DNA of 12,909 nt from Candidatus Iainarchaeum sp. (GCA_038736825.1 JAVYME010000032.1:1-12909); one strand, 5' to 3'; shown: positions 1-12,909, counted from the stretch's first letter. The notes: generated from the letters alone by a model not told the origin. Made by a program: numbers and translations.

Positions 1-549
1 GGCACTGGTGATGATGGTTGCGGTGGAACCTTGAATTGCGGAGATTGCCCGACAGGCCAAAAATGCAATATTGGAACCCACAAATGCGAACCAGAAAGTG
101 TGCCCCCTACAGGGACTTTTACTTTGCTGTTTTATTTTGACGAAATAAAACGTGAAGGTGCAACTATTAGCGATTACGATAATGCCTTGAGATGTGCTTC
201 TTGGTTTGCTGGAAAGGATTTAAGCACTTTGGAAGCCAAACCACAACATGAAGCGGTTTACAAGAATTTAAACCAGTTTTTTGAATTGAGAGAAGGTTCA
301 TTGACAGGAACAAAGCTTTCCTGCTCTGTTTCTGGTGACTATCTAGACTTTAAAGATGCTGAAGGCACTCAACCCTATTATGTAATATCATGCCCTGGCG
401 TGAAGTTCAATCAATCCTATGCCTTCATTTTCAAGTATAAGAAAGCCGATGGCAAAACTTACATGATGGCTTTCAAGATGAATGTTGACGGACAAGGTTA
501 TTTGAAGCCAACAGGCGAGGTTTTGGCAAGGGACAAAGAGGTGGAATGA
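1..549 (+). CDS. extracellular Cys-motif protein, C-terminal part (5' end lies outside the window)
   Basis: Frame 1 is open from base 1, with no stop before the TTG at 31 that the ORF track uses; the stop is TGA 547-549. The window starts inside a CGGTLNCGDCPTGQKCNIGTHKC cassette of the CGxCPxGxxCxxGxxC type also seen in the next gene. The rest is a ~140 aa Cys-poor domain I cannot assign to a family. Confidence 0.6.
   Translation, partial: GTGDDGCGGTLNCGDCPTGQKCNIGTHKCEPESVPPTGTFTLLFYFDEIKREGATISDYDNALRCASWFAGKDLSTLEAKPQHEAVYKNLNQFFELREGSLTGTKLSCSVSGDYLDFKDAEGTQPYYVISCPGVKFNQSYAFIFKYKKADGKTYMMAFKMNVDGQGYLKPTGEVLARDKEVE
538..544 (+). promoter_or_regulatory. Shine-Dalgarno site (GAGGTGG) serving the TTG start at 551
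   Basis: GAGGTGG lies 6 nt upstream of TTG 551 and overlaps the end of the upstream CDS. No in-frame ATG precedes the signal peptide. Confidence 0.5.
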
Positions 550-550
550 A

Positions 551-2734
551 TTGTTTTCATCCAAGCTGGCAGCCAAAGCCATTATTTTTTCATTGTTCAC
601 AGTACTGTTTTTTGCAACAGTTGCATCTCAAAATCCAGGGCCTCAATTGACAGGTGGAGGTCTTTCATCTGAACAAGTTCCACCTTTTCCTTCTGATGGC
701 GCTGTTGGTTCAAGGTCTTGCGGTTCAATTAAACATGGCAAATGCGGTGCAAACAACATGTATTGCAATGATGGCTCTCTTACAGAAAACTGCAATTTGT
801 GTCCTCCATGTCAAAGCGGCTTTCACTGCAATGAACAAGGACATTGTGAAGCTGATATTTCACCAATGTGTGATCCTGAAACCGAAACAGAGGTTTTGGG
901 GCCGGAAGGCAAATCAATGTGTGTTCCAATTGGCGAGAGAACAGGTGATTGCTCTAAGTGTATTCCCTCGATTCAAAGCCTTGATTATGGTGGTGGAACC
1001 CTCACTCAGGGAAAAACAGTCAATTTAACGCTTGGATTGGGAGACGAAAGCTGCACAGCCTCCAAGGCAGTATTGATTGTTTCAACAAGAAAACAAATAC
1101 TTAATTTCAACACCTACTGGCATGTTTTCAATTATCCAGTAAAAAACGAATTTGCAAGTGTGAAAGCTGCATTTGACTCAATTTTTCGTTCTGAAGGCGA
1201 AGTTGATCCAAACAAAAGCACAAGGGATTTTTCAAGTGAAGTCTTTTTGTTCTACCAGTTCTGGAATTTTACAGTAGATGCACAGGTAAAAGACAACCCA
1301 TCAAATTTGCAGGATTTTTCTTTGCCTTTTACAAGCGAACAACTTGATCCGCCTTTCAAAGAAAAAATGGACTGGCTTGCGGATAGGAATAAGGATTATG
1401 AAGCACTAATACCAAGGCTTAATGTTGCATCTATCCCAAAGAGAGGATTTTTTGAAGCCACTAGAGAGGGAACAGATGACAAGTTCATTGAGGGCATGAA
1501 TTTCAAGTTTGCAGTCAAATACAATTGTGATGGAAGATGGAAATTCAGTGATTTCCAGTCTGTGCCTTTTACAGATGCTGGAGCAGTTGTGAAAACATGC
1601 ACAGATGGAACCCCTTACGGGGAATGCTATAAGGGCAGCGATCCAGCAAAAATCGGCACTTTTTGCAATCAAGGCACAATTGAGGATTGCACTTCTCACA
1701 CACAATGCTGCCCTTCAGGCACAACCTGCCAGTCAGGCAAATGTGTTGCAAGCTCAAAAAACTGCACTTATGAAGGCACTGCAATTCCAGTAAACACTTG
1801 TGTTTACAAAATAACAAGCAATCAATCCCACAAACCAATATTTTGTGATGCAAGCGCTTCTTTGGTTGCAAAATGCAGTGGTGCCAATGGCTCTGCATCA
1901 GAATGCGGTTGTCCGCCAGAAATGAACTGCCAAGCAGATGGAACCTGCAAGACAGCAGTGACTGGCCCTACAGGCCCAGGACCACAAAGAACCCCAGGCA
2001 ATCCACCGGTTGAAATCCCGCCATTTCAAGAAGGCGGCGGAACAAGCATTACGGGCGGCGGTCTTGCAGACAACGCTTGTTATATAGTTGTGCAGGCAGA
2101 ATTCAATGGCACAACGTATGATTCTTCCAAGACGGTTACTGTTGATTCTTCTTCAATTGATTCAATTTCTGTAAAGGGAAAGTTTTCCTTGAGCCAAGAG
2201 GGCTGTGCAATAGAAGCCGGCGCACAATACGGTTTCTGGGATAATTCAAGCTTTTTGGGTTCAAGAAAGGGCGGTGGAACAATCACTGCAGAGCAGGCAA
2301 CCCAAATGAGTAACAAGCAAACAGTGGAAATTCCAGGCATTGTTCTTGCCGGAATTAAAGGCTTTAATGGTTCAAAGTTTTTTGGAATCACTGGAAAAGT
2401 GAAACCAAAGGGGGCAACGCAGTTCTCTCCCAAAAACTCTGCAACAATTGCCTTCCAGTTTGGTTCCGGTGGCACAACCACTCCGCCTGGCGAAAACAAG
2501 TGCTCTGATGGAACAATAAAAAACAATTGCTCTGCAACAAAGCCAAAGTATTGTAATGAGTCGTTGGAGTTTGTTGATAATTGCCGGGAATGCGGTTGCC
2601 CTGCGAACAGCGAGTGCCAGGCTGACGGTTCTTGCAAGGAAATAGTGCCTCTTGCTGGCTGTGATCCCTGCCAGAGCATTGCGGGCTGCCTTGCATGCAT
2701 TGACAAGGCAATGGCAGAACAAACCCTGAAATGA
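551..2734 (+). CDS. large secreted Cys-rich multidomain surface protein with C-terminal 4-Cys tail
   Basis: 727-aa ORF. The TTG start lies 1 nt after the upstream stop and has an SD. N-terminal signal peptide: MFSSKLAAKAIIFSLFTVLFFATVASQ. Four cysteine cassettes lie at 719-847, 1598-1744, 1763-1948 and 2501-2635; the clearest is KCSDGTIKNNCSATKPKYCNESLEFVDNCRECGCPANSECQADGSCK. There are many N-x-S/T sequons and G/T/P-rich linkers. The extreme C-terminus is GCDPCQSIAGCLACIDKAMAEQTLK. Confidence 0.8.
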   Translation: MFSSKLAAKAIIFSLFTVLFFATVASQNPGPQLTGGGLSSEQVPPFPSDGAVGSRSCGSIKHGKCGANNMYCNDGSLTENCNLCPPCQSGFHCNEQGHCEADISPMCDPETETEVLGPEGKSMCVPIGERTGDCSKCIPSIQSLDYGGGTLTQGKTVNLTLGLGDESCTASKAVLIVSTRKQILNFNTYWHVFNYPVKNEFASVKAAFDSIFRSEGEVDPNKSTRDFSSEVFLFYQFWNFTVDAQVKDNPSNLQDFSLPFTSEQLDPPFKEKMDWLADRNKDYEALIPRLNVASIPKRGFFEATREGTDDKFIEGMNFKFAVKYNCDGRWKFSDFQSVPFTDAGAVVKTCTDGTPYGECYKGSDPAKIGTFCNQGTIEDCTSHTQCCPSGTTCQSGKCVASSKNCTYEGTAIPVNTCVYKITSNQSHKPIFCDASASLVAKCSGANGSASECGCPPEMNCQADGTCKTAVTGPTGPGPQRTPGNPPVEIPPFQEGGGTSITGGGLADNACYIVVQAEFNGTTYDSSKTVTVDSSSIDSISVKGKFSLSQEGCAIEAGAQYGFWDNSSFLGSRKGGGTITAEQATQMSNKQTVEIPGIVLAGIKGFNGSKFFGITGKVKPKGATQFSPKNSATIAFQFGSGGTTTPPGENKCSDGTIKNNCSATKPKYCNESLEFVDNCRECGCPANSECQADGSCKEIVPLAGCDPCQSIAGCLACIDKAMAEQTLK

Positions 2735-2756
2735 TTTTTTTTGAGATGGTTGAAGG

Positions 2757-3989
2757 ATGAAAAAAAAGTTTTTGGTTTTAGTTTTTTTGTTTTTTTTCCT
2801 TGACTGTTTTGCCTTCACCATAAATTCAAGGGTTGCTGACACAAGCCAGGAAATGAGGCGCGATCTCACAGAATACGCGGCAGGAGTTGCAAACACCTCT
2901 AGCCCTACAACTGCTTTCATTAAATTGCAGGAAACCGCTTTTTCCGTGAATGTTTCAGGCTTAAAGGACTGGCATGGAGAATACACTGCAGTTGCATTCT
3001 TGTACGGGCCAAGATTGATTTCAAAAGAGGGCACTATTACAGCGGAAAAGCCTTCAATAAAACTTAGGTTTTATTGGAAGAAAGGCAGTGAAATCCATGA
3101 ACTGGATTGCGAGCCAAGGCCTACGTTGAGCCTTAAAACTGTTGGGCAAGAGCAAAGGTGTGATTTGAAGGATGGCGGTTTTGCAAGGGATGGCATAATT
3201 GTTTACAGGATTGACAAAATTAGTGGTCCCGATTATGTTGAAAAGACAAGGATTGGCTGGTGGGTTTTCAAGCTTTACAGTTATTATTCCATAAAATCCG
3301 GTGCTGATCCAGCAGTGACAATAGATTACAGTTTAAAGTTTAGGACTGACACTGGCACTGGTTCTGGTGGCACTTTCACTGAGTGGGTTTCAACAGAAGC
3401 ACAACTGCGAGAAATAAGTTCTGGAGCAACCACTGGAACTGGGCAAAAGCCATTGATTGGCGCTGATGCCTGCAAGCCTTTAATTGGCAAGATTTATTAT
3501 GCTGGTGCGGAAACAGTGGATCCAAAAAGCTTTCATTTAGCGAATTTTGGAGACATTTTTTCGGTTATGGTGAGAGCCGGAGTTGACTGCCAAATAAAGG
3601 ATTTTTCTCTGGGATTGTGGAAAACCAGCACTATAAGCGGGCAGCCTGAAATAAAAATAGGCTTTCTTTTGGATGAAATTACAACCTTAAACCAGCAAGG
3701 CTCTTTTTGGAAAAATGTCATGCTCAACCAGGCAGCATATCCTGCAAAAATGTATTTGGCTGCAAGGCTTGTGAATGCAGAGGGAAGAGAGTTCTTTTCA
3801 GCTCCAGTTGAAATGACTTTTCCGTCTGTAAGTAATGGCACTGGAACCGGCACTGGACCTGGTACTGGGCCTGGAACTGGCACCGGCACTACCACTCCAC
3901 CTGTTCCATTAAAGGGTTGTGATCCCTGCCAGAGTGTTGTGGGTTGCATTGCCTGTCTTGACAGTGCAATGGCTGGAGCTCTAAAATAG
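2757..3989 (+). CDS. secreted protein of unknown family with the same C-terminal 4-Cys tail
   Basis: 410-aa ORF with an ATG start 22 nt after the upstream stop. Signal peptide: MKKKFLVLVFLFFFLDCFAFT. The body is largely beta-strand-like sequence with two Cys pairs. It is followed by a Gly/Thr/Pro linker and the tail GCDPCQSVVGCIACLDSAMAGALK. A hairpin terminator lies downstream. Confidence 0.8.
   Translation: MKKKFLVLVFLFFFLDCFAFTINSRVADTSQEMRRDLTEYAAGVANTSSPTTAFIKLQETAFSVNVSGLKDWHGEYTAVAFLYGPRLISKEGTITAEKPSIKLRFYWKKGSEIHELDCEPRPTLSLKTVGQEQRCDLKDGGFARDGIIVYRIDKISGPDYVEKTRIGWWVFKLYSYYSIKSGADPAVTIDYSLKFRTDTGTGSGGTFTEWVSTEAQLREISSGATTGTGQKPLIGADACKPLIGKIYYAGAETVDPKSFHLANFGDIFSVMVRAGVDCQIKDFSLGLWKTSTISGQPEIKIGFLLDEITTLNQQGSFWKNVMLNQAAYPAKMYLAARLVNAEGREFFSAPVEMTFPSVSNGTGTGTGPGTGPGTGTGTTTPPVPLKGCDPCQSVVGCIACLDSAMAGALK
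3837..3902 (+). other. low-complexity Gly/Thr/Pro linker (GTGTGTGPGTGPGTGTGTTTPP) inside the CDS
   Basis: Direct translation. Synonymous codons are mixed (ggc/gga/ggt/ggg, act/acc), so this is a protein-level linker and not a slippery DNA microsatellite. Confidence 0.8.
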
Positions 3990-4016
3990 GCATGGAATAA
4001 ATGTTAAAAAAAGAAT

Positions 4017-4042
4017 AAGAGCCGCATTTTTTTGCGGCTTTT
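4017..4042. terminator. bidirectional hairpin terminator between the convergent units
   Basis: AAGAGCCGCA (4017-4026) pairs with TGCGGCTTTT (4033-4042). That gives a 10-bp stem with one G-U pair and a 6-nt T loop. It is followed by T7 on the + strand (4045-4051) and by T7 on the - strand (complement of 4006-4012). It sits between the stop at 3989 (+) and the stop at 4064 (-). Confidence 0.6.
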
Positions 4043-4063
4043 AATTTTTTTGTCTTGTTTTTT

Positions 4064-6301
4064 TTATTTTTTGCTTTTCTTTGAATTGGTTGTTTTTTCT
4101 GCACTGCTTTTTGTTTCGCCTTTGCCTTCAGGCTGCTTGTATGCTTGATAGGTGAGGATTACAATGATTAAGGCTATTAGTCCAAGGAAGAAGAGTATTG
4201 CAAGGTTTGCCAGGCGGTTTCCGCCAAGGGTTGCGAGCCCTGCTTGTTCCTGCTTGTTTTGGTCTGAAATGGTTTCTGTTGGAATCGGTGTTTGGGTTTC
4301 TTCTGGTTTTATTTCTTCCATTGTTGCTTCTTCTTTCGCTAAATCCAGCAAGAGGGTTTTCTTTATCACGCCTTTGTCTGTGTTTATGGTTACCTGCATT
4401 GAAATGTTTTTGTCTTCAATGCTTTTGCCGAGCGAGATTGTGGCAGTAATGGTTTTTTCCTCGTTTACATCCAATTCAAAGGCTTCTGTGTCGAATTTGG
4501 CTGTATAGCCTTCGCCTTTTATTCCGGTTACTGTGAGCTTGCAATTGCCTGTGTTTTTGAGTTTGATTTTTGCTTTTACTGTTTTTTCTGTTTCAAGGAT
4601 TTCCTGCTCTATTTCTGATTCTGCTGAGACATCTATTTGTTCCAATCCAATTGTTTTCACTTTCACTGTAATTTTTGACTTGTCACTGTAATCTCTTGCT
4701 TTTATTTCAAGCAATGCCTCGTATTGTCCTTCTGTTATGTTTACTGGTGGAGAGAGGAATGCATAGAATTCCTTGGTTTCTCCTGCTTTGAGTGTAATTT
4801 CTGATGGCTCTATTTTGAGCCAGTTGATGCCTGTTGCCTTGATTGAAACTGTTTGCTCCATTGTGCCAGTGTTTTTTACTGTGGAGGTAATGGCTTTGCC
4901 TTGCGGGCAAACAAACGCTCCAGCGCTCATTTCAATTGTTTTTTCAAGGCCTTTTTTTGAAACTTCCAGTGAATAGCAGTCGTTGAGGTTGAAAGAGAAT
5001 TCTTTTGCGTACTTGAAATAGTTGGAGTCTATTTCCAGCAAAAAGGATTTTTGGCCTGTTTTTTCGCCTGCAAGGTTGAAGGTTACTGTTATTTTTTTCT
5101 TTTCCGCTGGCCTTAATTCAAAGGTTTCCGGTGTTACTGTGGCTTTTATTCCTGTAATGCTTGCTCTTGCAATTATTGCGTTTTTTGTCGTGTTTTCTGC
5201 TTCAAACTCGTATGAGAGCGTGTCTTCAATGCATGCGCTTTCAATGCCGGAAACTTTTGTTATTGCAAGGTTAAAGCAGTCTTTTATTGTTGCTTTGAAT
5301 TCTTGAACTGTTTCTTTTCCGTATGTTGGCGAGAAGGCTTTTATTGTGAAAGGGTATTCTTTTTCCTCTGCATTGCTTGTGTGAAAGTAAAGCTTTATGT
5401 CTTTTGATTCGTTTGGTTCCAGCACCAGGGCTTTTTCTTTTAATTCAATCCATTCTGGTGCTTCAAGGCTTAATTGAAGGGTGTCTTTTGCCCTTCCAGT
5501 GTTTTTTATTGTTATTGCAATTTGTTCTTCGCGGTCGTTGCAGGCCTGGATTTTTTTCTGTGAATCTGTTCCTATTTGTATTGCCTGCTTGTCTTTTATT
5601 TCAAGCGAGAAATCTGTGGAAGTGGAAAAATCTGTGCCTTTTATTTTTGCTGTGATTTTTCCAGTGTATGTTTTGAGTTCTGCATTGCATGGAGCTTCTA
5701 TTTTGAGCTGGGCGGCTCTTTCAGCGCCCTTGTCTAAAAGGAATTCTTGCGGCAATGCTATTGAAAGCCATTCCGGCGGCAAGCCCTCTATTTTTGCTTG
5801 CACTGTTTCCATTGTAATGCTTTTGTTGGCGATTTTTATTTCAAAGAGCGCTGGCTCGCATTGTCCTGCTTCCCTGTTTTTTGGTTCAACTGAAACTGCA
5901 AGGGTTCTGCATTCTGGCAGTGAGAGAGTAATGTTTTGGGTTTTTTCCCCTTTTTTGGAGGAATATTTTAATCCAATCACGTAAGTGCCGGGTTTTGCAT
6001 AGCAACAAGGAGTGAAGAAAGCGTAAAGTTTTTTTGTTTCGCTTGCTTCAAGAGAGAACACGAGAGGGTTTTTTGCAATTTCTTGGCCGTTAATGTTCAC
6101 CCAGTCAGCGCTTTCACCTATTGCGGTGAGCGAGTACTCTATTGTTTCAGGCCAGTTGTTTTTGAACTCGTATTCTGTTAAAACTGACTCGCAGCATTTT
6201 GCCTGCAATTGGAAAGGCCCTGAAACAAAATCGGCTTTTGCGGTTATTCCAATCATTATGAGCAAGAGCCCTAAAATCGTGTATTTGTTGAATGCGTTCA
6301 T
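4064..6301 (-). CDS. membrane-anchored surface protein with tandem Ig-like (CARDB/NEW3-like) repeats
   Basis: 745-aa ORF with an ATG start and the SD AGGAGGT 7 nt upstream. Signal peptide: MNAFNKYTILGLLLIMIGITAKA. There are about 6-7 repeats of ~95-105 aa, each with a Cys near its start and strand-like patterns such as xIKNTGxxxxTV...GINWLxIEP...LxxGExKEFYAFL. The C-terminal TM helix is LANLAILFFLGLIALIIVILTY, followed by a Lys/Ser-rich tail. Confidence 0.85.
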   Translation of the reverse strand: MNAFNKYTILGLLLIMIGITAKADFVSGPFQLQAKCCESVLTEYEFKNNWPETIEYSLTAIGESADWVNINGQEIAKNPLVFSLEASETKKLYAFFTPCCYAKPGTYVIGLKYSSKKGEKTQNITLSLPECRTLAVSVEPKNREAGQCEPALFEIKIANKSITMETVQAKIEGLPPEWLSIALPQEFLLDKGAERAAQLKIEAPCNAELKTYTGKITAKIKGTDFSTSTDFSLEIKDKQAIQIGTDSQKKIQACNDREEQIAITIKNTGRAKDTLQLSLEAPEWIELKEKALVLEPNESKDIKLYFHTSNAEEKEYPFTIKAFSPTYGKETVQEFKATIKDCFNLAITKVSGIESACIEDTLSYEFEAENTTKNAIIARASITGIKATVTPETFELRPAEKKKITVTFNLAGEKTGQKSFLLEIDSNYFKYAKEFSFNLNDCYSLEVSKKGLEKTIEMSAGAFVCPQGKAITSTVKNTGTMEQTVSIKATGINWLKIEPSEITLKAGETKEFYAFLSPPVNITEGQYEALLEIKARDYSDKSKITVKVKTIGLEQIDVSAESEIEQEILETEKTVKAKIKLKNTGNCKLTVTGIKGEGYTAKFDTEAFELDVNEEKTITATISLGKSIEDKNISMQVTINTDKGVIKKTLLLDLAKEEATMEEIKPEETQTPIPTETISDQNKQEQAGLATLGGNRLANLAILFFLGLIALIIVILTYQAYKQPEGKGETKSSAEKTTNSKKSKK

Positions 6302-6306
6302 TTTTT

Positions 6307-9024
6307 TTACCTCCTGTGCCAGACCGGCTTTGAATGGTTTGTGTCGCTCTCAATGAACCCCTTGAGAGCAATCATTACTATAACTATTATCAGTAAAATA
6401 ATTAACCCTATGCCTAGTGGTTTTCCAAGGGCTGCCAGGGCTGAAAGCGGCCAAAAGCCTTGAGTTGCTTCACTGCTTTTGCCTTCGCTTTCTGCCGGCA
6501 CTGGTTGTTGCGGTGAAACAACAGCTATTGTTATGTTTTTTGAGATTTTTCTGCCATCAAATTCAACTGAAAGCGTTCCATAATAGTTTTCTGGCGCAAT
6601 TTCTTCAGATGCCCACGCATTGAATTCAAATGCTGCCACTTCTTTTGCTTCCAAGTCAACTATTGCGTTTTGAATGCTTGTTCCTTGCGGCATGGACCAA
6701 TTTATTTTTATTCCTGAAATTTTTTCACTGGAACGGTTTGCAAGAGCAACGCTTACCTTTTTGGTTTCTCCCGGGAAAATGATTATTGTTGAAGGATATG
6801 CGGCAATTTCAATTTCTGCTTGCACTTTTTCCCTTGCTTTTACAACACTAAAGTAAATTCTTTTGCTGAAGGTTTCACTGCCTTTCACCAAAACATCAAA
6901 CCAGTAAGTGCCCTCTTTTAAGTCCATTGGAGCGTCCACGTTTATGAACACTTCCCTGCCCTTGCCGGGAGCAAGAGTGAAGCTCTTTTCTGAAAGCGTT
7001 ATTTTTGCCTTTGTGCTATTGCTTATTTCTATGGAATAGCTTTCATTGTAATCGCCCTGGTTTTCAATCAAGAGAGAGAAAACCGCGTTAGAGCACTGTT
7101 CTATTGTAGTGTTCCTGTCCTTTACAGAGAAAACGCTTTTCCTGCGCTTTTCAACATCAAAGCACGCTGTCTTGTATTCGCGGTGCTTTGCAGTCCAAGC
7201 ATAAAGTTTCACGTAATGCTTTCCTGTTGCCTCGTCCAGTCTTGCGCTTGCATTTAACCTTAATGTTTTGGTTTCGTTTGGGTTCAAGTCAACAGAGCCC
7301 TGCACTTCTGTCGGAATGTCCGCTATTGTTTGCAGGTTCACTGTCAGGTTGTTGGAAGTGTTGTTTTTTACTGTAAAGGAAATGTTTTTGTCCTTGCCTT
7401 TTTCAAGGGAAACGCAAGTGCCTGAAAGCGAGAGCGTAAAGGATTGAGTGTCAGGCTCTTCACAGTCCTTTACAGTGAAATAAGCCTTGGTTTGAGCGTA
7501 TTCTTGGTCTGTTCTGGCAGAAACGTTCACATAGTATGAGCCAAGGCTTGTGCCAGGGTACACGTATGTTTTCAATGGCACATATTTTTCAGAGCGCGCG
7601 TCAACTTCAATTGTGCTTTCCTCAAAGTATGCTAGGAATTCTGTGCTTGAAGCCTCAAGCTCCACTTCTTTTATTTCGCTTGAATTGTTTCTTACTAAAA
7701 TGCTGAGAGTGCCTGTTTCGCCCCTGCAAAGCGCTTTGGTTGTGCTTGAAATGTAAAGGCAAGAGCCTGAAGTGCAAGAACCACAAGTTGTACAGGATTC
7801 AACTTTAATGCTTATTGAAGCGCTTTCCTTGTTGCCTCCGCTTTGCGCTTCAAGTTTTGCAGTATAGTTTCCGCTTGGAGCGTCAATTGTTTGTATTGAA
7901 AGCGAAACCCAAGTGCTTTCTCCAGGGTTAAGGCAAACATAGTTTGTTGAGGCTGTTGCATCAATATAGCTGGAATACTCTCTCCCGTAAAGGTTAAGGC
8001 AATAATAATTGCATGAATTGTTTTCAATTTTCACCCTGATGTTTCTGGCATCATTTCTTTGCATGCGGATTGAATTGTATTCTGGGTAAAGGCGAACGCT
8101 GAAACCACAACCACTGGAAGAAGAACCGATTTTTACAGTGTCAAAAGAGAAATCACTGTAATTTTGTCCGTCAAAAGCCCTCACTGTGCACTGCCATTCA
8201 TCGCCGTATTCAGTGAAAGAATTGCTTATGGTTGTTGTATTGTTTTGCGTGGAATAACTTCTAAAAGTGGAACCATTTCTTTTCCAAGTGTAATGGTATT
8301 CTATTGAATCATTGTCTGGGTCTGTGGAATGCGCATAACATACAAGGTCATCTGAGTTCACAGGCGAAGAAGGGGAAATGTAAACGTTTGGCGTGCTTGG
8401 CGGCCTGTTCTGGGTTGAACCAATGCAAAACCCGTTGAGGCAGCCGTTAATGCATGCCTCTTCATTGGACCAAGAGCAGTCCGCGTTCTGGTATGCGCGA
8501 GTGCAGCAATCCTTGCACTTCCAGCCAGGAGTGCATTGCTGTCCTGAAGAAATTGTTATTTCGTAGTATCCATAGTTTGAATAGGTTTTTTGATCGTATG
8601 CTCTTACTTTGCACATCCAGGTTTCTCCAGGGGAAGTGTGGGTTGCCTGCAATACATTGGTTTGAGAGCTTGAAATTCTAGTGGAATAGTATTCGCTGTT
8701 CCTATACCACTTGTATTCGTATTCTATTGGGTCGTTGTCAGGGTCTGTGGAATAAGCGCGGCACACTAAGTCATTGTTTGTTGTTGCCGGGTTTGGGGTG
8801 ATGCTTACCTCTGGAATTGTGGGGGCACTGTTTGGTTTTGGCGTGCAGGTTCCATTAATGCACCCATAAGGACAGTATTCTGTTTGAAGCCAGTTGCAAT
8901 TGCAATCTCTGTATGCGCGATGGAATGCGTCCTTGCAAAACCAGCCCATCATGCAATCAGCAAAAACCGGCATTGAAACTGCCAGCAACAAAAATAAAAC
9001 CATTAAAGCGTTTGTTTTTTTCAT
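6307..9024 (-). CDS. giant membrane-anchored surface protein: two N-terminal Cys-module + DxDxD Ig-like units, then CARDB-like repeats and a TM anchor
   Basis: The ORF track starts this ORF at TTG 9057. I prefer ATG 9024 (MKKTNALMVLFLLLAVSMPVFA, a signal peptide) because GGGGGG lies 9 nt upstream of it. A tandem ~140-aa unit is present twice (8110-8955). It is followed by ~550 aa of Ig-like repeats rich in N-x-S/T sequons and by the C-terminal TM LGIGLIILLIIVIVMIAL. Confidence 0.85.
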   Translation of the reverse strand: MKKTNALMVLFLLLAVSMPVFADCMMGWFCKDAFHRAYRDCNCNWLQTEYCPYGCINGTCTPKPNSAPTIPEVSITPNPATTNNDLVCRAYSTDPDNDPIEYEYKWYRNSEYYSTRISSSQTNVLQATHTSPGETWMCKVRAYDQKTYSNYGYYEITISSGQQCTPGWKCKDCCTRAYQNADCSWSNEEACINGCLNGFCIGSTQNRPPSTPNVYISPSSPVNSDDLVCYAHSTDPDNDSIEYHYTWKRNGSTFRSYSTQNNTTTISNSFTEYGDEWQCTVRAFDGQNYSDFSFDTVKIGSSSSGCGFSVRLYPEYNSIRMQRNDARNIRVKIENNSCNYYCLNLYGREYSSYIDATASTNYVCLNPGESTWVSLSIQTIDAPSGNYTAKLEAQSGGNKESASISIKVESCTTCGSCTSGSCLYISSTTKALCRGETGTLSILVRNNSSEIKEVELEASSTEFLAYFEESTIEVDARSEKYVPLKTYVYPGTSLGSYYVNVSARTDQEYAQTKAYFTVKDCEEPDTQSFTLSLSGTCVSLEKGKDKNISFTVKNNTSNNLTVNLQTIADIPTEVQGSVDLNPNETKTLRLNASARLDEATGKHYVKLYAWTAKHREYKTACFDVEKRRKSVFSVKDRNTTIEQCSNAVFSLLIENQGDYNESYSIEISNSTKAKITLSEKSFTLAPGKGREVFINVDAPMDLKEGTYWFDVLVKGSETFSKRIYFSVVKAREKVQAEIEIAAYPSTIIIFPGETKKVSVALANRSSEKISGIKINWSMPQGTSIQNAIVDLEAKEVAAFEFNAWASEEIAPENYYGTLSVEFDGRKISKNITIAVVSPQQPVPAESEGKSSEATQGFWPLSALAALGKPLGIGLIILLIIVIVMIALKGFIESDTNHSKPVWHRR
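6309..6315 (-). promoter_or_regulatory. Shine-Dalgarno site (AGGAGGT) for the 6301 start
   Basis: On the - strand the sequence reads AGGAGGTaaaaaaaATG. The site overlaps the last codons and stop of the upstream gene, which implies translational coupling. Confidence 0.6.
8110..8955 (-). repeat. protein-level tandem duplication (2 x ~140 aa) at the mature N-terminus
   Basis: Unit 1 is 8536-8955 and unit 2 is 8110-8535. Both contain GW(F/K)CKD...RAY...C...(E/A)(Y/A)C.(Y/N)GC.NG.C, then P.(P/S)TP.V.I.P..P....DLVC.A.STDPDND.IEY.Y.W.RN........T......G(E/D).W.C.VRA(Y/F)D... The copies have diverged at the DNA level. Confidence 0.75.
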
Positions 9025-9033
9025 TTTTTTTCG

Positions 9034-9039
9034 CCCCCC
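9034..9039 (-). promoter_or_regulatory. Shine-Dalgarno-like G6 for the 9024 ATG
   Basis: The - strand reads GGGGGGcgaaaaaaaATG. Confidence 0.5.
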
Positions 9040-9067
9040 TTTTTTTCTAGCTGTCAAGCGCTTTTCC

Positions 9068-9538
9068 TCATTTTATTGTTTTGCATCTCCCTGACGCGGA
9101 ATCGCATCCGTAAACGCAATTGATTTCTTCAACTATTTTTCCAGTGTTAAGGTTGATTTTAACGCTTTTTGTGTTGCGGTGGAAAAAACTGCCCTCGCAT
9201 TTCCATTTAAAATTGCTTCCAGAAAGGCATTTTCCTGAAACCCTGTCACAACCATAAAAGCATTCTGTTTTTTCTGTTTTGCCTGTTAAAAGGTCTTTTT
9301 TCACGCTATACCATTTAGTGGAAAAAATTCCAAGAACCTTGTAATAGCCTTTCTGGCAAGAGAACTGGAATCTTGGAACCATTGAAATGCTGTAATCCCT
9401 TTCATGCCAACAACTTGTGCAAGCAGGGCTTGCTGTGGACTGCCCTCCTTTTCGGTAATCTGAGAGAGAGCCTGCAAAAGCGAAAGGCATTCCTGAAAGA
9501 ATTGAAAAAAACAATATTGCAATAAACAATTTTTTCAT
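9068..9538 (-). CDS. small secreted protein with two W-x-C...C-x-YGC...G-x-C modules
   Basis: 156-aa ORF with an ATG start and GGTG 8 nt upstream. Signal peptide: MKKLFIAILFFSILSGMPFAFA. The two modules are FSCQKGYYKV...TECFYGCDRVSGKC and KWKCEGSFFHRN...INCVYGCDSASGRC. No TM anchor. Confidence 0.8.
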   Translation of the reverse strand: MKKLFIAILFFSILSGMPFAFAGSLSDYRKGGQSTASPACTSCWHERDYSISMVPRFQFSCQKGYYKVLGIFSTKWYSVKKDLLTGKTEKTECFYGCDRVSGKCLSGSNFKWKCEGSFFHRNTKSVKINLNTGKIVEEINCVYGCDSASGRCKTIK

Positions 9539-9546
9539 TTTTTTTT

Positions 9547-9550
9547 CACC
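9547..9550 (-). promoter_or_regulatory. Shine-Dalgarno-like GGTG for the 9538 ATG
   Basis: The - strand reads TAAGGTGaaaaaaaaATG, immediately after the upstream stop. Confidence 0.45.
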
Positions 9551-10798
9551 TTATTTCAGCTTACAATAGTTTCCGCTTGAAAGGCGCGCACAATAATATC
9601 CTTGAGGGCAATCACTGTTGTAAGTGCACTCTTTTCTGCCCGGATTGCATGAACCATTGGTGCAGCCATTGTCACAGTATTCTGCATAACCCCATATTTT
9701 GCTGCCATAAACATCAACTGGCACTTTCCAAGAACCACTGCAAACCCATTTTGAGCTTGGAGAGTAAAGACTGCCATAATTGCTTGAAACCACTGGCGGC
9801 ACCACTGTGGGTTTTGTGGTTGCACGGTATTGTGAAATTGTTGTTGGCTTGTGCTGGCTTGCTGGAGTTGATTCAGGTTGAATGGTTTTTGCAGGGGTTG
9901 TTTTGACTTCAAAGCCTGTGGATTTGCCAACGCATTGCCCGTTTTTGCAGGTTTGACAGCTTCCACAAGTCTGGTACAAAAAACTGGCTTCAGAGCAATC
10001 CTTGTAAGTGAATTTAATGAATACTTTGCCTGGCTGTGCTGGATCGCAAAATGTTTCGCTTTTTGGAGTGCAGGTTTTCACTGGCGGTTTTGGCGCTGGA
10101 TTGCAGTTTCCACTAGCGCATCCGTATTGGCAGTATTCTTTTTGTATTATGTTTCCGCATGACAGGTCTATTTTTATTCTGTAGTTTCCTTGGCATTGCC
10201 ATTGGTATTGTGGTTGTGGTTTTGGCTTGCATTGTGTTGTGTTTGGGTCGCATCCGTATTGGCAGTATTCTTTTTGTATTATGTTTCCGCATGACAGGTC
10301 TATTTTTATTCTGTAGTTTCCTTGGCATTGCCATTGGTATTGTGGGGCTGGCGCTGGATTGCATTTTCCTGTTGCTTGATTGCAACCATAAGCGCAGTTT
10401 TCCGGGAATGCGTGTTCATAGCCCCATTTGAAAGAGGCTGGAAGTTGGGCTTTTTCTATTCTATAGCTTGTGTTTCCCCTGCACTCGTAAGAGGTTTTCC
10501 AGTTTATGCTTTCAAAACGGCCATTGTAACAGTAAACATAGTCTGTTTGCGGCTTGTATTGGGCAATGGATGTGTTTTTTGTGCAATTGCTGAAATAGTC
10601 TATTTTGTACAGGGTTCTGCATTCGTCAGTCCAATTGGTGGTGCAGTCTCCGCACTTGTATTCTGTTTTCACCAGGTATGGAGTGTAGCAGGAGGGGTTG
10701 CCTGTGCAAGTGCAGTTTGGAATTGTTTGAAGTCCAGCGGCTGCCAAGGGTAAAAGCAAAAGGAATGCTATTGCAATTATTGTTTTTGTTTTAACCAT
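9551..10798 (-). CDS. secreted Cys-rich modular protein (about 9% Cys), paralog of 11484-12359
   Basis: The ORF track start is GTG 10807. I prefer ATG 10798 (MVKTKTIIAIAFLLLLPLAAAG, a signal peptide), which has AGGAG 10 nt upstream and overlaps the upstream stop (ATGgtTAA). Architecture in order: a YLVKTEYKCGDC...CAYGCNQATGKC domain; two identical QYQWQCQGNYRIKIDLSCGNIIQKEYCQYGC modules; a CGSCQTCKNGQC cassette; a Thr/Pro linker; then a final WVCSGSW...EYCDNGCTNGSC module. Confidence 0.8.
   Translation of the reverse strand: MVKTKTIIAIAFLLLLPLAAAGLQTIPNCTCTGNPSCYTPYLVKTEYKCGDCTTNWTDECRTLYKIDYFSNCTKNTSIAQYKPQTDYVYCYNGRFESINWKTSYECRGNTSYRIEKAQLPASFKWGYEHAFPENCAYGCNQATGKCNPAPAPQYQWQCQGNYRIKIDLSCGNIIQKEYCQYGCDPNTTQCKPKPQPQYQWQCQGNYRIKIDLSCGNIIQKEYCQYGCASGNCNPAPKPPVKTCTPKSETFCDPAQPGKVFIKFTYKDCSEASFLYQTCGSCQTCKNGQCVGKSTGFEVKTTPAKTIQPESTPASQHKPTTISQYRATTKPTVVPPVVSSNYGSLYSPSSKWVCSGSWKVPVDVYGSKIWGYAEYCDNGCTNGSCNPGRKECTYNSDCPQGYYCARLSSGNYCKLK
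10117..10345 (-). repeat. perfect 97-bp direct repeat (10117-10213 and 10249-10345), period 132 bp, in frame inside the CDS
   Basis: A base-by-base comparison shows the two 97-bp stretches are identical. They are separated by a divergent 35-bp linker. The 132-bp period equals 44 codons. The flanks share GGCGCTGGATTGCA (starting near 10091 and near 10350). Confidence 0.95.
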
Positions 10799-11363
10799 AA
10801 AATTCACGCTCCTGCCTGCTTTTGATTGTTATTATTTTTGCGATTATGGCGATTGATAGCAGAATTATTATTGCGATGAGGAATATTAGTGTTAAGCCTT
10901 CAATGCCGCCCAGTGCTGCCAGTGGTGTTACACTGTTTTTTTGTTCTTCTTTTTGGGTTTCATTTGGCTGTGTTTCCTGTATTGGAAAGTATTTTGCGGA
11001 GTGCACTCTGATTTCTTTCAGCACTGTTGTTTCTCCAAGTGAAACCATTAGGCTGGAATTGTAAATTGTGCCTTCTGTTTCGTCAGATGGAAAGATTGTG
11101 AGGTAAAAGGTTGCGCTTTCCATTGGCTTGATTTTTTCTGGAATGCTGGAGATTGTGTAGTGCAAGCCGGCTGGGCCAATGAAAAGGGCTTTTAGTTCTT
11201 TTTCTTGTAGGGAGGTGTTTTGGACTGTTACCGGCATTGTCATTTCCCTTACGAGGTATACATCGTTCCAAGTTTTTATGTGGCTTTCATCGAAAGCGCT
11301 TGCACTGGAAAAAAGCAAGAGCAGTATTCCTGTTGCAAGCGCAATGCACAAATTTTTTTTCAA
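10791..11363 (-). CDS. small membrane-anchored protein with one Ig-like domain
   Basis: The N-terminal region has no ATG. Candidate TTG starts are at 11369 (ORF track) and 11363. GGGGG (complement of 11371-11375) lies 7 nt from the 11363 TTG and only 1 nt from the 11369 TTG, so I prefer 11363 ((M)KKNLCIALATGILLLLFSSASA, a signal peptide). The protein has one ~110-aa beta-rich domain, a Glu/Gln-rich spacer, PLAALGG, and the TM LTLIFLIAIIILLSIAIIAKIITI. Confidence 0.7.
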   Translation of the reverse strand: MKKNLCIALATGILLLLFSSASAFDESHIKTWNDVYLVREMTMPVTVQNTSLQEKELKALFIGPAGLHYTISSIPEKIKPMESATFYLTIFPSDETEGTIYNSSLMVSLGETTVLKEIRVHSAKYFPIQETQPNETQKEEQKNSVTPLAALGGIEGLTLIFLIAIIILLSIAIIAKIITIKSRQEREFYG

Positions 11364-11370
11364 AACCAAG

Positions 11371-11375
11371 CCCCC
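11371..11375 (-). promoter_or_regulatory. Shine-Dalgarno-like G5 for the 11363 TTG
   Basis: The - strand reads GGGGGcttggttTTGaaaaaaaat. Confidence 0.45.
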
Positions 11376-11421
11376 TTTACATTAACTTATTAACTTTGAT
11401 ACATTAATTTATGTCGCCCCT

Positions 11422-11438
11422 TATATAAAAACCTTTCT
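11422..11438 (-). promoter_or_regulatory. archaeal BRE/TATA promoter (AGAAAGG-TTTTTATATA) for 11363 and downstream genes
   Basis: The - strand reads aGAAAGGTTTTTATATA, about 55-60 nt upstream of the start codon. A 14-mer is identical to the promoter at 12424-12437. A conserved ATTAATG lies ~22-26 nt downstream of the TATA centre, a plausible initiator. Confidence 0.6.
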
Positions 11439-11483
11439 ATTTTTCCTTTTTTTCAAAATTTCGTTTTTTTGGTTGTTGCTGTT

Positions 11484-12359
11484 TTAATTGCATTGCCCTG
11501 TTGCCCTATTGCAGCCATTATAGCAGAAAGTCTGCTTTACAACAGTGCTCTTGTCCTGCAGTGTTTTAACGCTGTAATTGCCAATGCAACTGTAAAAATA
11601 TTGCTGGTATGCTGTGGTTGTTGTCGGTGTTTCAGGTGCTCTGTATGCTTGAATTCCAGCTGGCTCCCTGTAAACTGGCTGTGGCGTGTATTCTGGGGTT
11701 TTTTCCTGCATGCACCTGAATCCAACTGGATCGCAAACATAGCCACTGCCACAGGTTTCTATTGTTATAACGCAGCCATCCGAATATGCCTTTACAACCC
11801 TGTTGCCCCTGCACTCCAGCTTGTATTCAGGGTTTGCTGGCCTTGTCCATGCTGGATTGCATTTTCCAGTGCTCCAATTGCAGCTGTACTGGCAATAGTC
11901 AATGCTTGTGGTTTGCATCATTGTCCAACCCCAAGGGGAAAAGAATTTTCTGTATGCAACTGAATAGCCATTGTTTTTGCATTCATTCCATGTTATCCAG
12001 GCAAAGCTTTCAAAGTGACCGTTTATGCAGTAAAAGTATCCTGAAATTTTTTCTGTGGTTGTTTTTGATGTGCCGTCACTGTAATAGCTGGTTGTGTAAA
12101 GGGTTTGGCATTCAGGGGTTAATCCCCTAGAGCAGTCACCGCATTTTTTTTCTGTCCTTACAATGTAAGGGCTTCCATAAGAGTATGGCTGGGTGTAACC
12201 ATAATATGAAGTGGTGGTTTGCGGTCTGTAGGATTGAACAGAGGTTGTTTGAGTTGGAGTTGCCCTGTATGCTGTAGTTGTACCGGATAATGCGAATGCT
12301 GCCGGTAATGCCAAAATGAAAATTAATCCAATTATTGAAAGAATTTTTTTTCCAGTCAT
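11484..12359 (-). CDS. secreted Cys-rich modular protein, paralog of 9551-10798
   Basis: 291-aa ORF with an ATG start and GGGGGG 8 nt upstream. Signal peptide: MTGKKILSIIGLIFILALPAAFA. YIVRTEKKCGDC...ECQTLY...YCINGHFES..W....EC...CQYSCNWSTGKCNPA aligns with the N-terminal domain of 9551-10798. Two further modules follow, the last being YSCIGNYSVKT...FCYNGCNRATGQC. There are Thr/Tyr/Pro linkers and no TM anchor. Confidence 0.8.
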   Translation of the reverse strand: MTGKKILSIIGLIFILALPAAFALSGTTTAYRATPTQTTSVQSYRPQTTTSYYGYTQPYSYGSPYIVRTEKKCGDCSRGLTPECQTLYTTSYYSDGTSKTTTEKISGYFYCINGHFESFAWITWNECKNNGYSVAYRKFFSPWGWTMMQTTSIDYCQYSCNWSTGKCNPAWTRPANPEYKLECRGNRVVKAYSDGCVITIETCGSGYVCDPVGFRCMQEKTPEYTPQPVYREPAGIQAYRAPETPTTTTAYQQYFYSCIGNYSVKTLQDKSTVVKQTFCYNGCNRATGQCN

Positions 12360-12367
12360 AAAAATAA

Positions 12368-12373
12368 CCCCCC
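12368..12373 (-). promoter_or_regulatory. Shine-Dalgarno-like G6 for the 12359 ATG
   Basis: The - strand reads GGGGGGttattttaATG. Confidence 0.5.
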
Positions 12374-12422
12374 AAAGAAGTAACTATTTAACTGTTGTTC
12401 ATTAATAATTATTCTCCTCTTT

Positions 12423-12438
12423 CTATAAAAACCTTTCG
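12423..12438 (-). promoter_or_regulatory. archaeal BRE/TATA promoter (CGAAAGG-TTTTTATAG) for the minus-strand surface operon
   Basis: The - strand reads CGAAAGGTTTTTATAG, 64 nt upstream of ATG 12359. It shares the same 14-mer as 11424-11437. ATTAATG lies at 12400-12406 (complement). Confidence 0.6.
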
Positions 12439-12457
12439 CCGAGCGCTTTCACAGCCA

Positions 12458-12552: not shown

Positions 12553-12909
12553 TTAACCTTTTTCAAGTGCTTTCTTGAGAAGGTCTGACTTTGTGATTAT
12601 GCCGGCAATTTTTCCACGCTCTGCCACAAGAACCGCCTGTTCGTGATTCAAAATTCCGGCAAGAACAGGGAACACTGTATGGCTGTTCACAACAGGCAAA
12701 GGCTCACCCATTATATCTGAAGCCTTTAAGAGATTGAACTGGCTGCCCTTTTCCCTAATCGCGGAAAGAGCCCCGCTTTCGGTTATTATGCCGACACACT
12801 GTCCCCTTTTTACCACTGGAATCTGCGAAAAACCGTTTTTTTCCATTATCTCAACAGCCTTTCTGGCGCTCTCATTAAAGCTTATTGATTTGACTTTCCT
12901 GCTCATGAT
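12553..12909 (-). CDS. CBS-domain pair (Bateman module) protein, 5' end probably outside the window
   Basis: There are two CBS motifs: ...VKSISFNESARKAVEIMEKNGFSQIPVVKRGQCVGIITESGALSAI and ASDIMGEPLPVVNSHTVFPVLAGILNHEQAVLVAERGKIAGIITKSDLLKKA. The frame stays open to the window edge. The ATG at 12906 sits in the position of the usual (D)IM-x-x-x-V motif of CBS1, so the true start is likely upstream. Confidence 0.85.
   Translation of the reverse strand: MMSRKVKSISFNESARKAVEIMEKNGFSQIPVVKRGQCVGIITESGALSAIREKGSQFNLLKASDIMGEPLPVVNSHTVFPVLAGILNHEQAVLVAERGKIAGIITKSDLLKKALEKG

Follow-up and report, generated by a model that had tools for sequence, protein, structure and literature searches.

Diapherotrites/Iainarchaeota are uncultured DPANN archaea, and we know of no account of their cell envelope or of their mode of interaction with other cells. 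Ig-domain S-layer glycoproteins of archaea include csg of Haloferax volcanii and the SLP of Nitrosopumilus maritimus. In Sulfolobales, including Metallosphaera, the S-layer is encoded by the two-component operon SlaA/SlaB (PMC11329633). Among DPANN archaea, the Micrarchaeota S-layer protein SLP_Mh is an acidic, glycosylated protein of ~100 kDa that was identified mainly by in-silico features and abundance; its S-layer domains are recognisable, sulfur-containing residues are almost lacking and its anchor is uncertain (bioRxiv 10.1101/2021.04.28.441871). Large extracellular SLT (murein lytic transglycosylase-like) proteins occur in Woesearchaeota and Pacearchaeota according to the part of Castelle et al. 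2021 (PMC8204110) considered here, in which there is no mention of a C-terminal Cys tag or of an anchor operon.

We analysed a stretch of 12,909 nucleotides, hereafter the window, which a homolog search identified as a complete contig (12.9 kb) from a MAG of Candidatus Diapherotrites. The ORFs of the original prediction and their coordinates were reproduced, and the annotated features are as follows.

1-549, plus strand: A, 3' part of a secreted Cys-containing protein, 5' end cut by the contig edge, frame open from base 1
551-2734, plus strand: B, 727-aa secreted Cys-rich protein (6.1% Cys) with leader and C-terminal tag
2757-3989, plus strand: C, secreted protein of 410 aa, its tag preceded by a Gly/Thr/Pro linker
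4016-4043, strand not applicable: GC-rich hairpin between the convergent units, flanked by T-tracts on both strands
4064-6301, minus strand: D, 745-aa type-I membrane protein (leader, orthologs, paralogy to the E stalk)
6307-9024, minus strand: E, 905-aa type-I membrane protein (AF2 model, ortholog alignment)
9068-9538, minus strand: F, 156-aa secreted protein with two Cys modules
9551-10798, minus strand: G, secreted protein of 415 aa (8.9% Cys) with Pro-rich linkers between its four Cys modules
10791-11363, minus strand: H, 190-aa anchor with one Ig domain (leader and TM helix, H-family profile)
11415-11436, minus strand: BRE/TATA promoter GAAAGGTTTTTATA of the H-G-F-E-D operon, its core identical to that of the promoter before I
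11484-12359, minus strand: I, 291-aa secreted Cys-module protein, paralog of the N-terminal half of G
12415-12436, minus strand: second, duplicated BRE/TATA promoter and leader before I
12553-12909, minus strand: J, HTH_3 + CBS regulator gene of which the 3' part is present (CBS domain, E-value 4e-20)

We read the window as most of a clade-specific cell-surface cluster consisting of a scaffold, variable Cys-module accessories and tag-bearing cargo, and regard this reading as evenly balanced between right and wrong. Like csg and SLP, its large anchors combine a Sec leader, a string of Ig-like domains, a Thr/Pro/acidic linker, a C-terminal anchor, sequons (in E) and an acidic mass of 80-100 kDa. 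D and E nevertheless have no sequence or HMM relationship to these proteins, no PGF-CTERM or other sorting-signal model was matched in the window, and this locus has three paralogous anchors in a single operon, one with a Cys-rich tip, instead of one lattice protein. It resembles SlaA/SlaB in encoding surface components in an operon, one of them a C-terminally TM-anchored stalk protein, but there is no homology, the core consists of three proteins that are all anchored and paralogous to each other, and the soluble partners are small proteins with Cys modules. SLP_Mh is likewise an acidic surface protein of ~100 kDa from a DPANN archaeon, whereas D and E are without its S-layer domains, their C-terminal TM anchors are clear, and E is rich in Cys.

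The cluster gives three handles on this lineage, namely a conserved anchor trio of candidate envelope components, a rare Cys module and a clade-restricted tag, the last marking a very small set of secreted proteins that are peptidoglycan-lytic enzymes in some lineages. Should the tag serve for docking or sorting, it would represent a new archaeal surface-display mechanism and would identify effectors shown to bacterial partners; if not, the locus would still be the best surface-coat candidate in this lineage and could be targeted with antibodies, cryo-ET and metaproteomics.

Layout, expression signals and gene order

All eight complete ORFs (B-I) carry the Sec-type leader that had been predicted for them, in which a hydrophobic stretch within residues 1-30 comes after a short, basic n-region, and most of the leaders end in an AxA-like putative cleavage site (VFA/DC, AFA/GS, ASA/FD, AKA/DF and AFA/LS). 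Since roughly 10-15% of the proteins in an archaeal genome are estimated to be secreted, eight consecutive secreted proteins are far beyond chance. The prediction that the locus has no enzymes applied to the window, where Pfam and NCBIfam searches gave zero enzyme, ATPase or transporter families, but not to the system as a whole, because the tagged gene of deeper relatives encodes an SLT lytic transglycosylase.

The minus-strand unit was expected to have a promoter and an internal promoter, and two identical archaeal BRE/TATA elements were found, their core AAAGGTTTTTATA being repeated exactly at 11424-11436 and 12424-12436 (minus strand). The element before H is conserved ahead of the H orthologs in the related loci L001 and L007 and is followed by a conserved 5' leader with TTAAT repeats and a GGGGG Shine-Dalgarno site. 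Gene spacing in this unit, calculated from the ORF coordinates, is -8, 12, 43 and 5 nt, and starts are preceded by Shine-Dalgarno sites of the GGAGG or GGGGG type, both in agreement with the original prediction; the spacing of -8 to 43 nt along H-G-F-E-D suggests translational coupling. The two units do converge on one element, the hairpin at 4016-4043, which with its T-tracts on both strands is likely to be a bidirectional terminator. Scans for sigma-70 promoters and intrinsic terminators, whose models are not relevant for an archaeon, remained at background level, and neither tRNA genes nor Rfam families were matched in the window.

Gene order is conserved in relatives. The order J-H-(G)-E-D is kept at 33-72% identity in four loci (L001, L003, L004 and L007) and J-H-E-D at 25-29% identity in three others (L005, L006 and L012), so that the synteny on which the original prediction hinged extends down to ~25% identity. 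The orthologs of J are full-length HTH-CBS proteins in the equivalent position (L001 and L003-L007), and J is always directly upstream of the anchor operon and co-directional with it. The regular architecture proposed for the minus-strand unit was thus recovered for the order of H, E and D but not in full, as gene I is window-specific, the number of small Cys-module genes varies among relatives and the deep relatives are without modules. Housekeeping neighbours such as the SAM synthetase and CTP synthase genes are equally syntenic, and synteny alone is therefore weak evidence of a functional link; adjacency may reflect low rearrangement rather than function, which counts against our reading.

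Anchor proteins and the Cys module

Anchors had been proposed among the minus-strand proteins, and D, E and H each proved to have a single C-terminal TM helix between an L-[AS]-[AT]-L-G motif and a basic tail; all three thus have the secretion signal and membrane attachment looked for in S-layer proteins. H, the first gene of the conserved core operon, encodes a leader, one Ig-like domain, a linker, LAALGG, the TM helix and a basic tail. D, with orthologs at 28-72% identity, comprises a leader, an N-terminal domain, ~5 Ig-like domains, a Glu/Thr/Pro linker, LATLGG, the TM helix and a Lys-rich tail. E has a distal tip made of two copies of a 4-Cys module plus FN3-like domain, then five Ig-like stalk domains, a linker, the TM helix and a conserved tail ending in SKPVWHRR; tip and stalk are visible in an AF2 model (mean pLDDT 77), and the TM helix and tail are the best-conserved regions in the ortholog alignment (0.78-0.79 identity).

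Residues 150-711 of D aligned with residues 326-883 of E by hhalign (probability 99.3%, E-value 3.5e-20), and an H-family profile aligned with the last Ig domain, linker and TM helix of E (probability 96.9%, E-value 1.5e-10) and of D (probability 88.8%). Judged by these alignments, H, E and D are paralogs with a common membrane-proximal module of Ig domain, linker, L-x-x-L-G and TM helix, and they differ in length, with 1, about 6 and 9 extracellular domains among the three. Despite the L-x-x-L-G, TM helix and basic tail, no CTERM model of NCBIfam matched D, E or H (E-value <= 0.1). We suggest that this anchor module would let the three proteins assemble as a scaffold tethered to the membrane, which is a candidate for an envelope or S-layer-type coat.

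A somewhat unlikely alternative is that D and E, with H, are the glycoproteins of an S-layer lattice and that the Cys-module and tagged proteins are unrelated secreted neighbours. The masses of D (82 kDa) and E (101 kDa), their acidic pI of 5.4, their conserved position beside core genes and the Haloferax/Nitrosopumilus-like succession of leader, Ig-like string, acidic/Thr/Pro linker and C-terminal anchor all agree with such a lattice, as does the enrichment of N-x-S/T sequons in E (24 observed versus 11.4 expected, P<0.0005). Dense sequons and Thr/Pro linkers had been predicted for the locus at large; sequon enrichment is significant in E only, is marginal in B, G and H and is not seen in C, D, F and I, and the linkers are limited to B, C, E and I. 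Cys makes up 3.5% of E and 1.7% of D, above the level usual in S-layer proteins. At the family level, D and E gave the only Pfam/NCBIfam matches reported for the anchors and secreted proteins, all sub-threshold or generic Ig-like (FixG_C, HYDIN/Cep192 Ig, NPCBM_assoc and choice_anch_T). Homology to S_layer_N/C, DUF1608, SlaA/SlaB, csg-like or PACE-CTERM families was not found at cut-off, the best match being a weak, domain-level one to NF033506, a putative S-layer family (23.7 bits; cut-off, 110). PDB sequence searches with B, D and E were empty, and a Foldseek search of the PDB with the E model returned only generic multi-Ig structures (hydin/CFAP and complement MG domains) with TM scores of 0.1-0.2, which are uninformative about function.

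Against the lattice stand this lack of any S-layer family at threshold, the generic character of the Foldseek matches, and the arrangement of three paralogous anchors in a coupled operon with D and E promoterless, which would be unusual for the most abundant protein of a cell. The 4-Cys module occurs in 11 copies across E, F, G and I. A profile of the module matched 39 of 1.84 billion (1.84e9) representative proteins, and the module is restricted to the clade; the matches include E, F and I of the window, a protein (P0052) whose 14,444-bp contig also encodes an E ortholog, another (P0060) whose 8,884-bp contig also encodes E and D orthologs, and one that takes the place of E in L008. L004 lacks a separate G gene, and its E-like protein bears G-like modules, hinting at a fusion. 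This apparent fusion and the presence of the E-tip module in G, F and I suggest that E and at least the Cys-module proteins belong together, in conflict with the view of unrelated neighbours.

The soluble module proteins vary among relatives. F has orthologs only in the nearest relatives (L007 and L013), G orthologs are just 30-38% identical, and a 132-bp tandem duplication in G (10117-10365) doubles one of its modules. I is 35% identical to the N-terminal half of G over 234 aa (E-value 3e-31) and is absent between J and H in L001 and L003-L007; by sequence it is a paralog of G confined to the window, and the promoter before it is a duplicate as well. Lineage-specific elements are genes I and F together with the enzyme-free cargo, and Cys modules are missing from deep relatives. 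In the lineage of the window, the E tip and the secreted I, G and F bear one common disulfide-type 4-Cys beta module, and we infer that soluble I, G and F are held at the E tip by module-module contacts.

The reading of a scaffold with accessories and cargo has difficulties of its own. The Cys content of E is atypical of S-layer proteins, and D and E sit at the end of a five-gene operon without a strong promoter of their own. The E tip is no more variable than the stalk, unlike in many host-contact proteins: among close orthologs, tip identity (0.58-0.69) is not below that of the stalk (0.46-0.63), and a rapidly evolving tip was rejected for these orthologs. Nor did Pfam, NCBIfam, PDB sequence or Foldseek searches reveal homology to characterised S-layer, adhesin or docking systems. 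What stands of the predicted dedicated envelope, S-layer or host-contact module is that the genes are not a random collection, given their synteny, the paralogy of H, E and D, the common Cys module and the tag; its S-layer aspect gained no family homology.

The C-terminal tag of the convergent operon

B ends in the four-Cys sequence GCDPCQSIAGCLACIDKAMAEQTLK (core DNA 2660-2704) and C in GCDPCQSVVGCIACLDSAMAGALK (core DNA 3918-3962), in both cases after a flexible linker. This tag has the form C-x2-C-x6-C-x2-C-[ILV]-D, lies 7-11 residues ahead of the stop and extends over ~25 residues plus a short helix. It contains neither a hydrophobic or TM helix nor a basic tail, and so differs from the tripartite sorting signal of motif, hydrophobic helix and basic cluster, and no Pfam or NCBIfam model matched it. 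A literature search found no description of the locus, the Cys module or the tag, and we consider the four-cysteine tag to be previously undescribed.

The DNA pattern of the tag was found in 6 stretches of 185,579 species genomes, all in DPANN MAGs, where ~1 was expected by chance, and in 7 stretches of a metagenome collection. In the window and fetched loci, nearly all matches are 7-11 residues before a stop (the exceptions are L020 and L021), and as far as its sequence pattern tells, the tag is confined to the Iainarchaeota/Diapherotrites clade. The central domain of B, which has no match in Pfam, NCBIfam or PDB, is ~35-38% identical to tagged proteins of L001 and L007. Orthologs of C are all tagged, with 64% identity in L007 and 34-36% in L001 and L003; the homolog search with C matched C alone, its low-complexity GT/GP linker probably having swamped the word index. 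In the deep relatives L005, L006 and L012, the gene beside the anchor operon encodes a tagged, secreted protein of 518-1356 aa with an SLT domain (assigned by precomputed Pfam in L005 and L006 and by homology in L012), comparable to the SLT proteins of other DPANN archaea, whereas the SLT catalytic domain (PF01464) is absent from A, B and C in Pfam searches. The passenger domains bearing the tag, SLT among them, are unrelated to one another.

These properties recall dockerin-cohesin pairs and sortase, archaeosortase or exosortase signals, where a short conserved C-terminal element also follows a flexible linker, is joined to unrelated passenger domains and is encoded in clusters with candidate scaffold or anchor genes. 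The tag differs from them in its ~25 residues with four Cys and in being without TM helix or basic tail, and from sortase display in that the window has no sortase-like gene; sortase, archaeosortase and rhombosortase genes were absent from the window and fetched flanks alike, and dockerin, cohesin and SLH domains had no Pfam match in any window protein. In our reading, the convergent operon would supply the secreted cargo B and C, each with linker, tag and short helix, and the tag would retain or dock them on the surface structure. Its presence on SLT lytic transglycosylases in sister lineages points to the wall of a neighbouring (bacterial) cell as a target. A more specific proposal, which we put forward tentatively and think unlikely as it stands, is that the tag is a new display signal that docks diverse secreted cargo, including the peptidoglycan-lytic SLT enzymes of sister lineages, on the H/E/D scaffold, an archaeal counterpart of cohesin-dockerin or sortase display with which Iainarchaeota would present effectors to partner or prey cells.

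The anchor and tag operons could also be functionally unrelated neighbours kept together by inherited gene order, with the tagged proteins docking to a small N-anchored protein of their own operon or being released. In relatives the tag operon begins with its own ~190-aa helical N-anchored protein with two invariant Cys, which suggests that it could be a self-contained system and counts against our reading; a TrmB regulator gene sits between the units in deep relatives, and gene order around the locus is generally conserved. We nevertheless judge this alternative improbable, as all tag loci with sufficient flank have the tagged gene in convergent orientation to a D-like gene and tagged genes are found only at the anchor locus in these cases, the adjacency has outlasted both the replacement of cargo domains and a fall of anchor identity to ~25%, and L005 has a tagged SLT gene with no small N-anchored protein in the fetched region. 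A free C-terminal Cys of the ~190-aa proteins was considered as a covalent partner of the tag and is unlikely, because the two invariant Cys suggest an internal disulfide.

Finally, we regard as highly improbable that the plus-strand proteins are subunits of a Sec-dependent, donor-strand-exchange surface filament of the threads or bundling-pili type with the Ig-repeat anchors as base: C-like and several neighbouring proteins of relatives do share a mature N-terminus AF-[TV]-[ILV]-x-T right after the leader, where a donor strand would sit, and look beta-rich in AF2 at low confidence, but the single-sequence AF2 model of C (pLDDT 35) is unusable as a structure, Pfam and NCBIfam showed no homology to known thread or pilin families, and a C-terminal four-Cys tag is foreign to known donor-strand systems.

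The tag had been predicted for two, perhaps three, plus-strand proteins, and it holds for B and C but not for A, whose C-terminal domain has matches among proteins that lack the tag and are encoded in the convergent unit of L001 (649 aa and 391 aa) and L007 (478 aa).

Gene content and operon layout

ORF analysis returned the same gene set and coordinates as the original prediction, which had proposed an all-secreted surface or attachment island at 551–12359. A Sec-type leader, expected for all eight complete ORFs, was recognized by sequence inspection in every one (the first 30 residues hold a basic n-region and a hydrophobic segment), followed in most of them by an AxA-type site.

Genes of the window (position, strand, description)
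1–549, +, A, gene with its 5' end cut by the contig edge
551–2734, +, B, protein with a C-terminal Cys tag
2757–3989, +, C, protein with a C-terminal Cys tag
4064–6301, −, D, Ig-repeat anchor
6307–9024, −, E, Ig-repeat anchor with Cys modules
9068–9538, −, F, Cys-module protein
9551–10798, −, G, Cys-module protein
10791–11363, −, H, Ig-repeat anchor
11484–12359, −, I, Cys-module protein
12553–12909, −, J, HTH-CBS regulator, cut by the contig end

The anchors D, E and H each carry one C-terminal transmembrane (TM) helix, with a common L-[AS]-[AT]-L-G motif before it and basic residues after it. None of the window proteins matched an enzyme, ATPase or transporter family in Pfam or NCBIfam, as had been anticipated; the matches of D and E were limited to generic or sub-threshold Ig-like families, J contained a Pfam CBS domain, and PDB sequence searches with B, D and E gave zero matches. 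The suggested density of N-x-S/T sequons was found in E (24 observed versus 11.4 expected) with no significant enrichment in the other proteins, and Thr/Pro linkers were present in B, C, E and I and absent from the rest.

The intergenic distances of −8, 12, 43 and 5 nt in the minus-strand unit were reproduced from the ORF coordinates, and starts were preceded by Shine-Dalgarno sites of the GGAGG or GGGGG type. The two suspected promoters proved to be archaeal-type elements, one before H and one before I, and the convergent units probably share a terminator, a GC-rich hairpin (4016–4043) with T-tracts in both directions that lies between them.

Promoter and leader elements (position, strand, description)
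11424–11436, −, BRE/TATA element AAAGGTTTTTATA before H
12424–12436, −, identical copy of AAAGGTTTTTATA before I
11364–11450 and 12360–12450, −, TTAAT-repeat leader, also at 7880–8011 in L001 and 790–878 in L007 (loci of close relatives)

The BRE/TATA sequence occurs exactly twice in the window, and the same element, together with a comparable leader, lies upstream of H orthologs in L001 and L007. Between this element and the GGGGG Shine-Dalgarno site, the leader reads TTAATG ... AGTTAA(T) ... AGT; these TTAAT elements are conserved from genome to genome, also in the duplicate before I, and may constitute an operator, perhaps for the adjoining regulator J.

Anchor proteins and the Cys module

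E was modelled with AF2 using 13 orthologs (mean pLDDT 77). Starting distally, the model comprised a tip made of two units, each combining a 4-Cys module and an FN3-like domain, then five Ig-like domains, a disordered linker and, at the membrane, the TM helix. In profile-profile comparisons, D was a paralog of the stalk and anchor of E (probability 99.3%, E 3.5e-20), and H matched the membrane-proximal part (final Ig domain plus linker and TM) of both E (probability 96.9%) and D (88.8%), so the three proteins are size variants on one anchor module. Identity among E orthologs was highest in the TM and cytoplasmic tail (GIGLIILL...SKPVWHRR; 0.78–0.79), compared with 0.46–0.63 in the Ig domains and 0.33 in the linker.

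Region of E with the highest identity among orthologs
6307–6420, −, TM and tail, ...LKGxIESDTDxSKPVWHRR

This pattern suggests a specific packing of the TM and tail within or at the membrane and is a possible sign of a specific membrane or cytoplasmic partner. The terminal PVW[HR]RR is retained even at 33% overall identity.

The Cys module has the form W-x-C-x-G ... C-x-Y-G-C-x(2-5)-G-x-C and is present in 11 copies (two each in E and F, four in G and three in I), and no Pfam family covers it. Its profile matched only 39 cluster representatives among 1.84 billion, with E, F and I of the window themselves in this set. Also among the matches were P0052, which shares a 14,444-bp contig with the E ortholog P0003; P0060, whose 8,884-bp contig also carries E and D orthologs; and P0070 (1120 aa, 8 matches to the profile), which occupies the E position at the more distant locus L008 as the upstream member of an anchored pair. 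Pairs of this kind, two large anchored Ig/CARDB proteins in tandem, were seen in more distant archaeal contigs at L008 4601–10154 and L009 17–9714, two loci from which the HTH-CBS neighbour and tagged genes are absent.

Tandem duplication in G
10117–10365, −, 132 bp, 1.9 copies, 94% match

The duplication doubles a Cys module along with its Pro-rich linker (QYQWQCQGNYRIKIDLSCGNIIQKEYCQYGC repeat) and is a recent change in module number. Gene I was seen in none of the relatives examined. It is paralogous to G (35% over 234 aa) and is preceded by a duplicated promoter and leader.

The C-terminal tag and the convergent unit

A Cys tag had been assigned to two, perhaps three, plus-strand proteins; B and C both end in GC[DNS]PCxS[IV]xxGCxAC[IL]D followed by 8–9 further residues, and A has no tag. 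The convergent-unit proteins of the close relatives L001, L003 and L007 end in the same element, and a second flavour, ECSxCxT..ECLACxD[YW]KF..., ends lytic transglycosylase (SLT) domain proteins of the deep relatives L005, L006 and L012. The passenger domains before the tag are mutually unrelated, and no NCBIfam or Pfam model matches the tag itself.

Scanning with a back-translated DNA pattern, for which about 1 chance match was estimated in 596 Gb, yielded seven stretches in the metagenome collection and six in 185,579 species genomes, the latter all in DPANN MAGs (five carry the label Diapherotrites/Iainarchaeum or uncultured archaeon; the sixth is labelled Micrarchaeota but has the same locus). 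Across the window and all fetched loci, some of which overlap, the matches lie 7–11 residues before the stop codon, except in L020 and L021, which look like chance or unrelated matches, and in L010, which is truncated by the contig end. Wherever a tag locus has sufficient flank (L011, L012, L013, L016, L018, L019, L001, L003, L005, L006, L007 and the window), its tagged gene converges on a D-like gene ∼0.1–1.5 kb away. Judged by this pattern distribution, stop proximity and convergence, the tag is a genuine, strictly C-terminal, clade-restricted element, confined to this locus as far as sampled. At L021 249–293 (−), the tag-like ECNECSTIIGCLACIDSFF falls early in a Cys-rich open frame instead of at a C-terminus, and may reflect chance or a different use of the motif, the 1265-bp contig being too short to tell.

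Features of the convergent unit (position, strand, description)
Window 3837–3890, +, 12-bp repeat GGCACTGGAACC, 4.5 copies, encoding the (GTGP)n linker before the tag of C
L001 21254–21832, L003 20032–20586, L010 3582–4190, −, ∼190-aa N-anchored protein
L007 12377–12937 and 15824–16399, L006 17514–18128 and 19267–19863, −, ∼190-aa N-anchored protein
L005 12528–14933, L006 12602–17536, L012 6056–7886, also in L018 and L019, TrmB-family regulator and tagged SLT protein

At the position of the (GTGP)n linker, relatives have different repeat linkers (PGTE, EPV). Their convergent operon begins with the ∼190-aa protein. An N-terminal TM segment anchors this protein, its ectodomain is helical, and of its two invariant Cys one lies at or beside the very C-terminus; the window counterpart would lie just past the 5' end, upstream of A. 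In deep relatives, the TrmB-family regulator and tagged secreted SLT proteins replace B and C beside the D-like gene, and no SLT domain was found in the window proteins. Castelle et al. (PMC8204110) describe large, extracellular proteins with SLT domains from other DPANN lineages, in keeping with this cargo.

Conservation and possible role of the locus

In the close relatives L001, L003, L004 and L007 (33–72% identity), the order is SAM synthetase on the opposite strand, HTH-CBS, H, G-like, E and D, then the convergent secreted-protein unit. Small Cys-module genes number three in L007, and L001 and L003 have one larger gene each. L004 has none, and G-like modules lie within its 1098-aa E-like protein (43% identity between G 220–289 and E-like 338–398), which, as a fusion, hints that G and E act together. 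The deep relatives L005, L006 and L012 (25–29% identity) retain HTH-CBS, H (which has two Ig domains here), an E-like protein consisting of the stalk alone and nearly free of Cys, and D; none of the three has Cys-module genes. Since the surrounding housekeeping genes are likewise syntenic, gene order alone is weak evidence of a functional link.

The best-supported reading, of moderate confidence, is a dedicated cell-surface system in which the three paralogs H, E and D would together form an anchored scaffold, a candidate component of the envelope or S-layer whose assembly and role we infer. In this lineage, the Cys-module accessory proteins would associate with the like-module tip of E, and the tag would act in docking or retention of the convergently encoded cargo. 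The original proposal of a dedicated module was partly upheld, in that the genes are clearly linked by paralogy, shared rare elements and a conserved arrangement; its exact composition is lineage-specific, and its function can be stated only conditionally.

The architecture resembles that of Ig-domain S-layer glycoproteins and two-component S-layer operons, and no S-layer family homology was found in the window proteins with Pfam and NCBIfam; a plain S-layer with unrelated neighbours is a possible but less favoured explanation. Rather unlikely is a new tag-based surface-display system: the tag follows a logic similar to dockerin- or sortase-type display, the tripartite sorting signal is absent from it, and the window proteins contain no dockerin, cohesin or SLH domains. 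That two independent modules are adjacent merely by descent appears unlikely; a small N-anchored protein heads the tag operon in relatives and a TrmB gene intervenes between the units, both in favour of this explanation. A donor-strand filament is highly improbable. The published literature searched contained no description of the locus, the Cys module or the tag.

The L012 contig (JAHJUD010000009.1) comes from a MAG with the label 'Candidatus Micrarchaeota archaeon'. Its H-E-D, TrmB and tagged-SLT locus is the one found on Diapherotrites-type contigs, with proteins 48–69% identical to those of L006, and the label may be imprecise.
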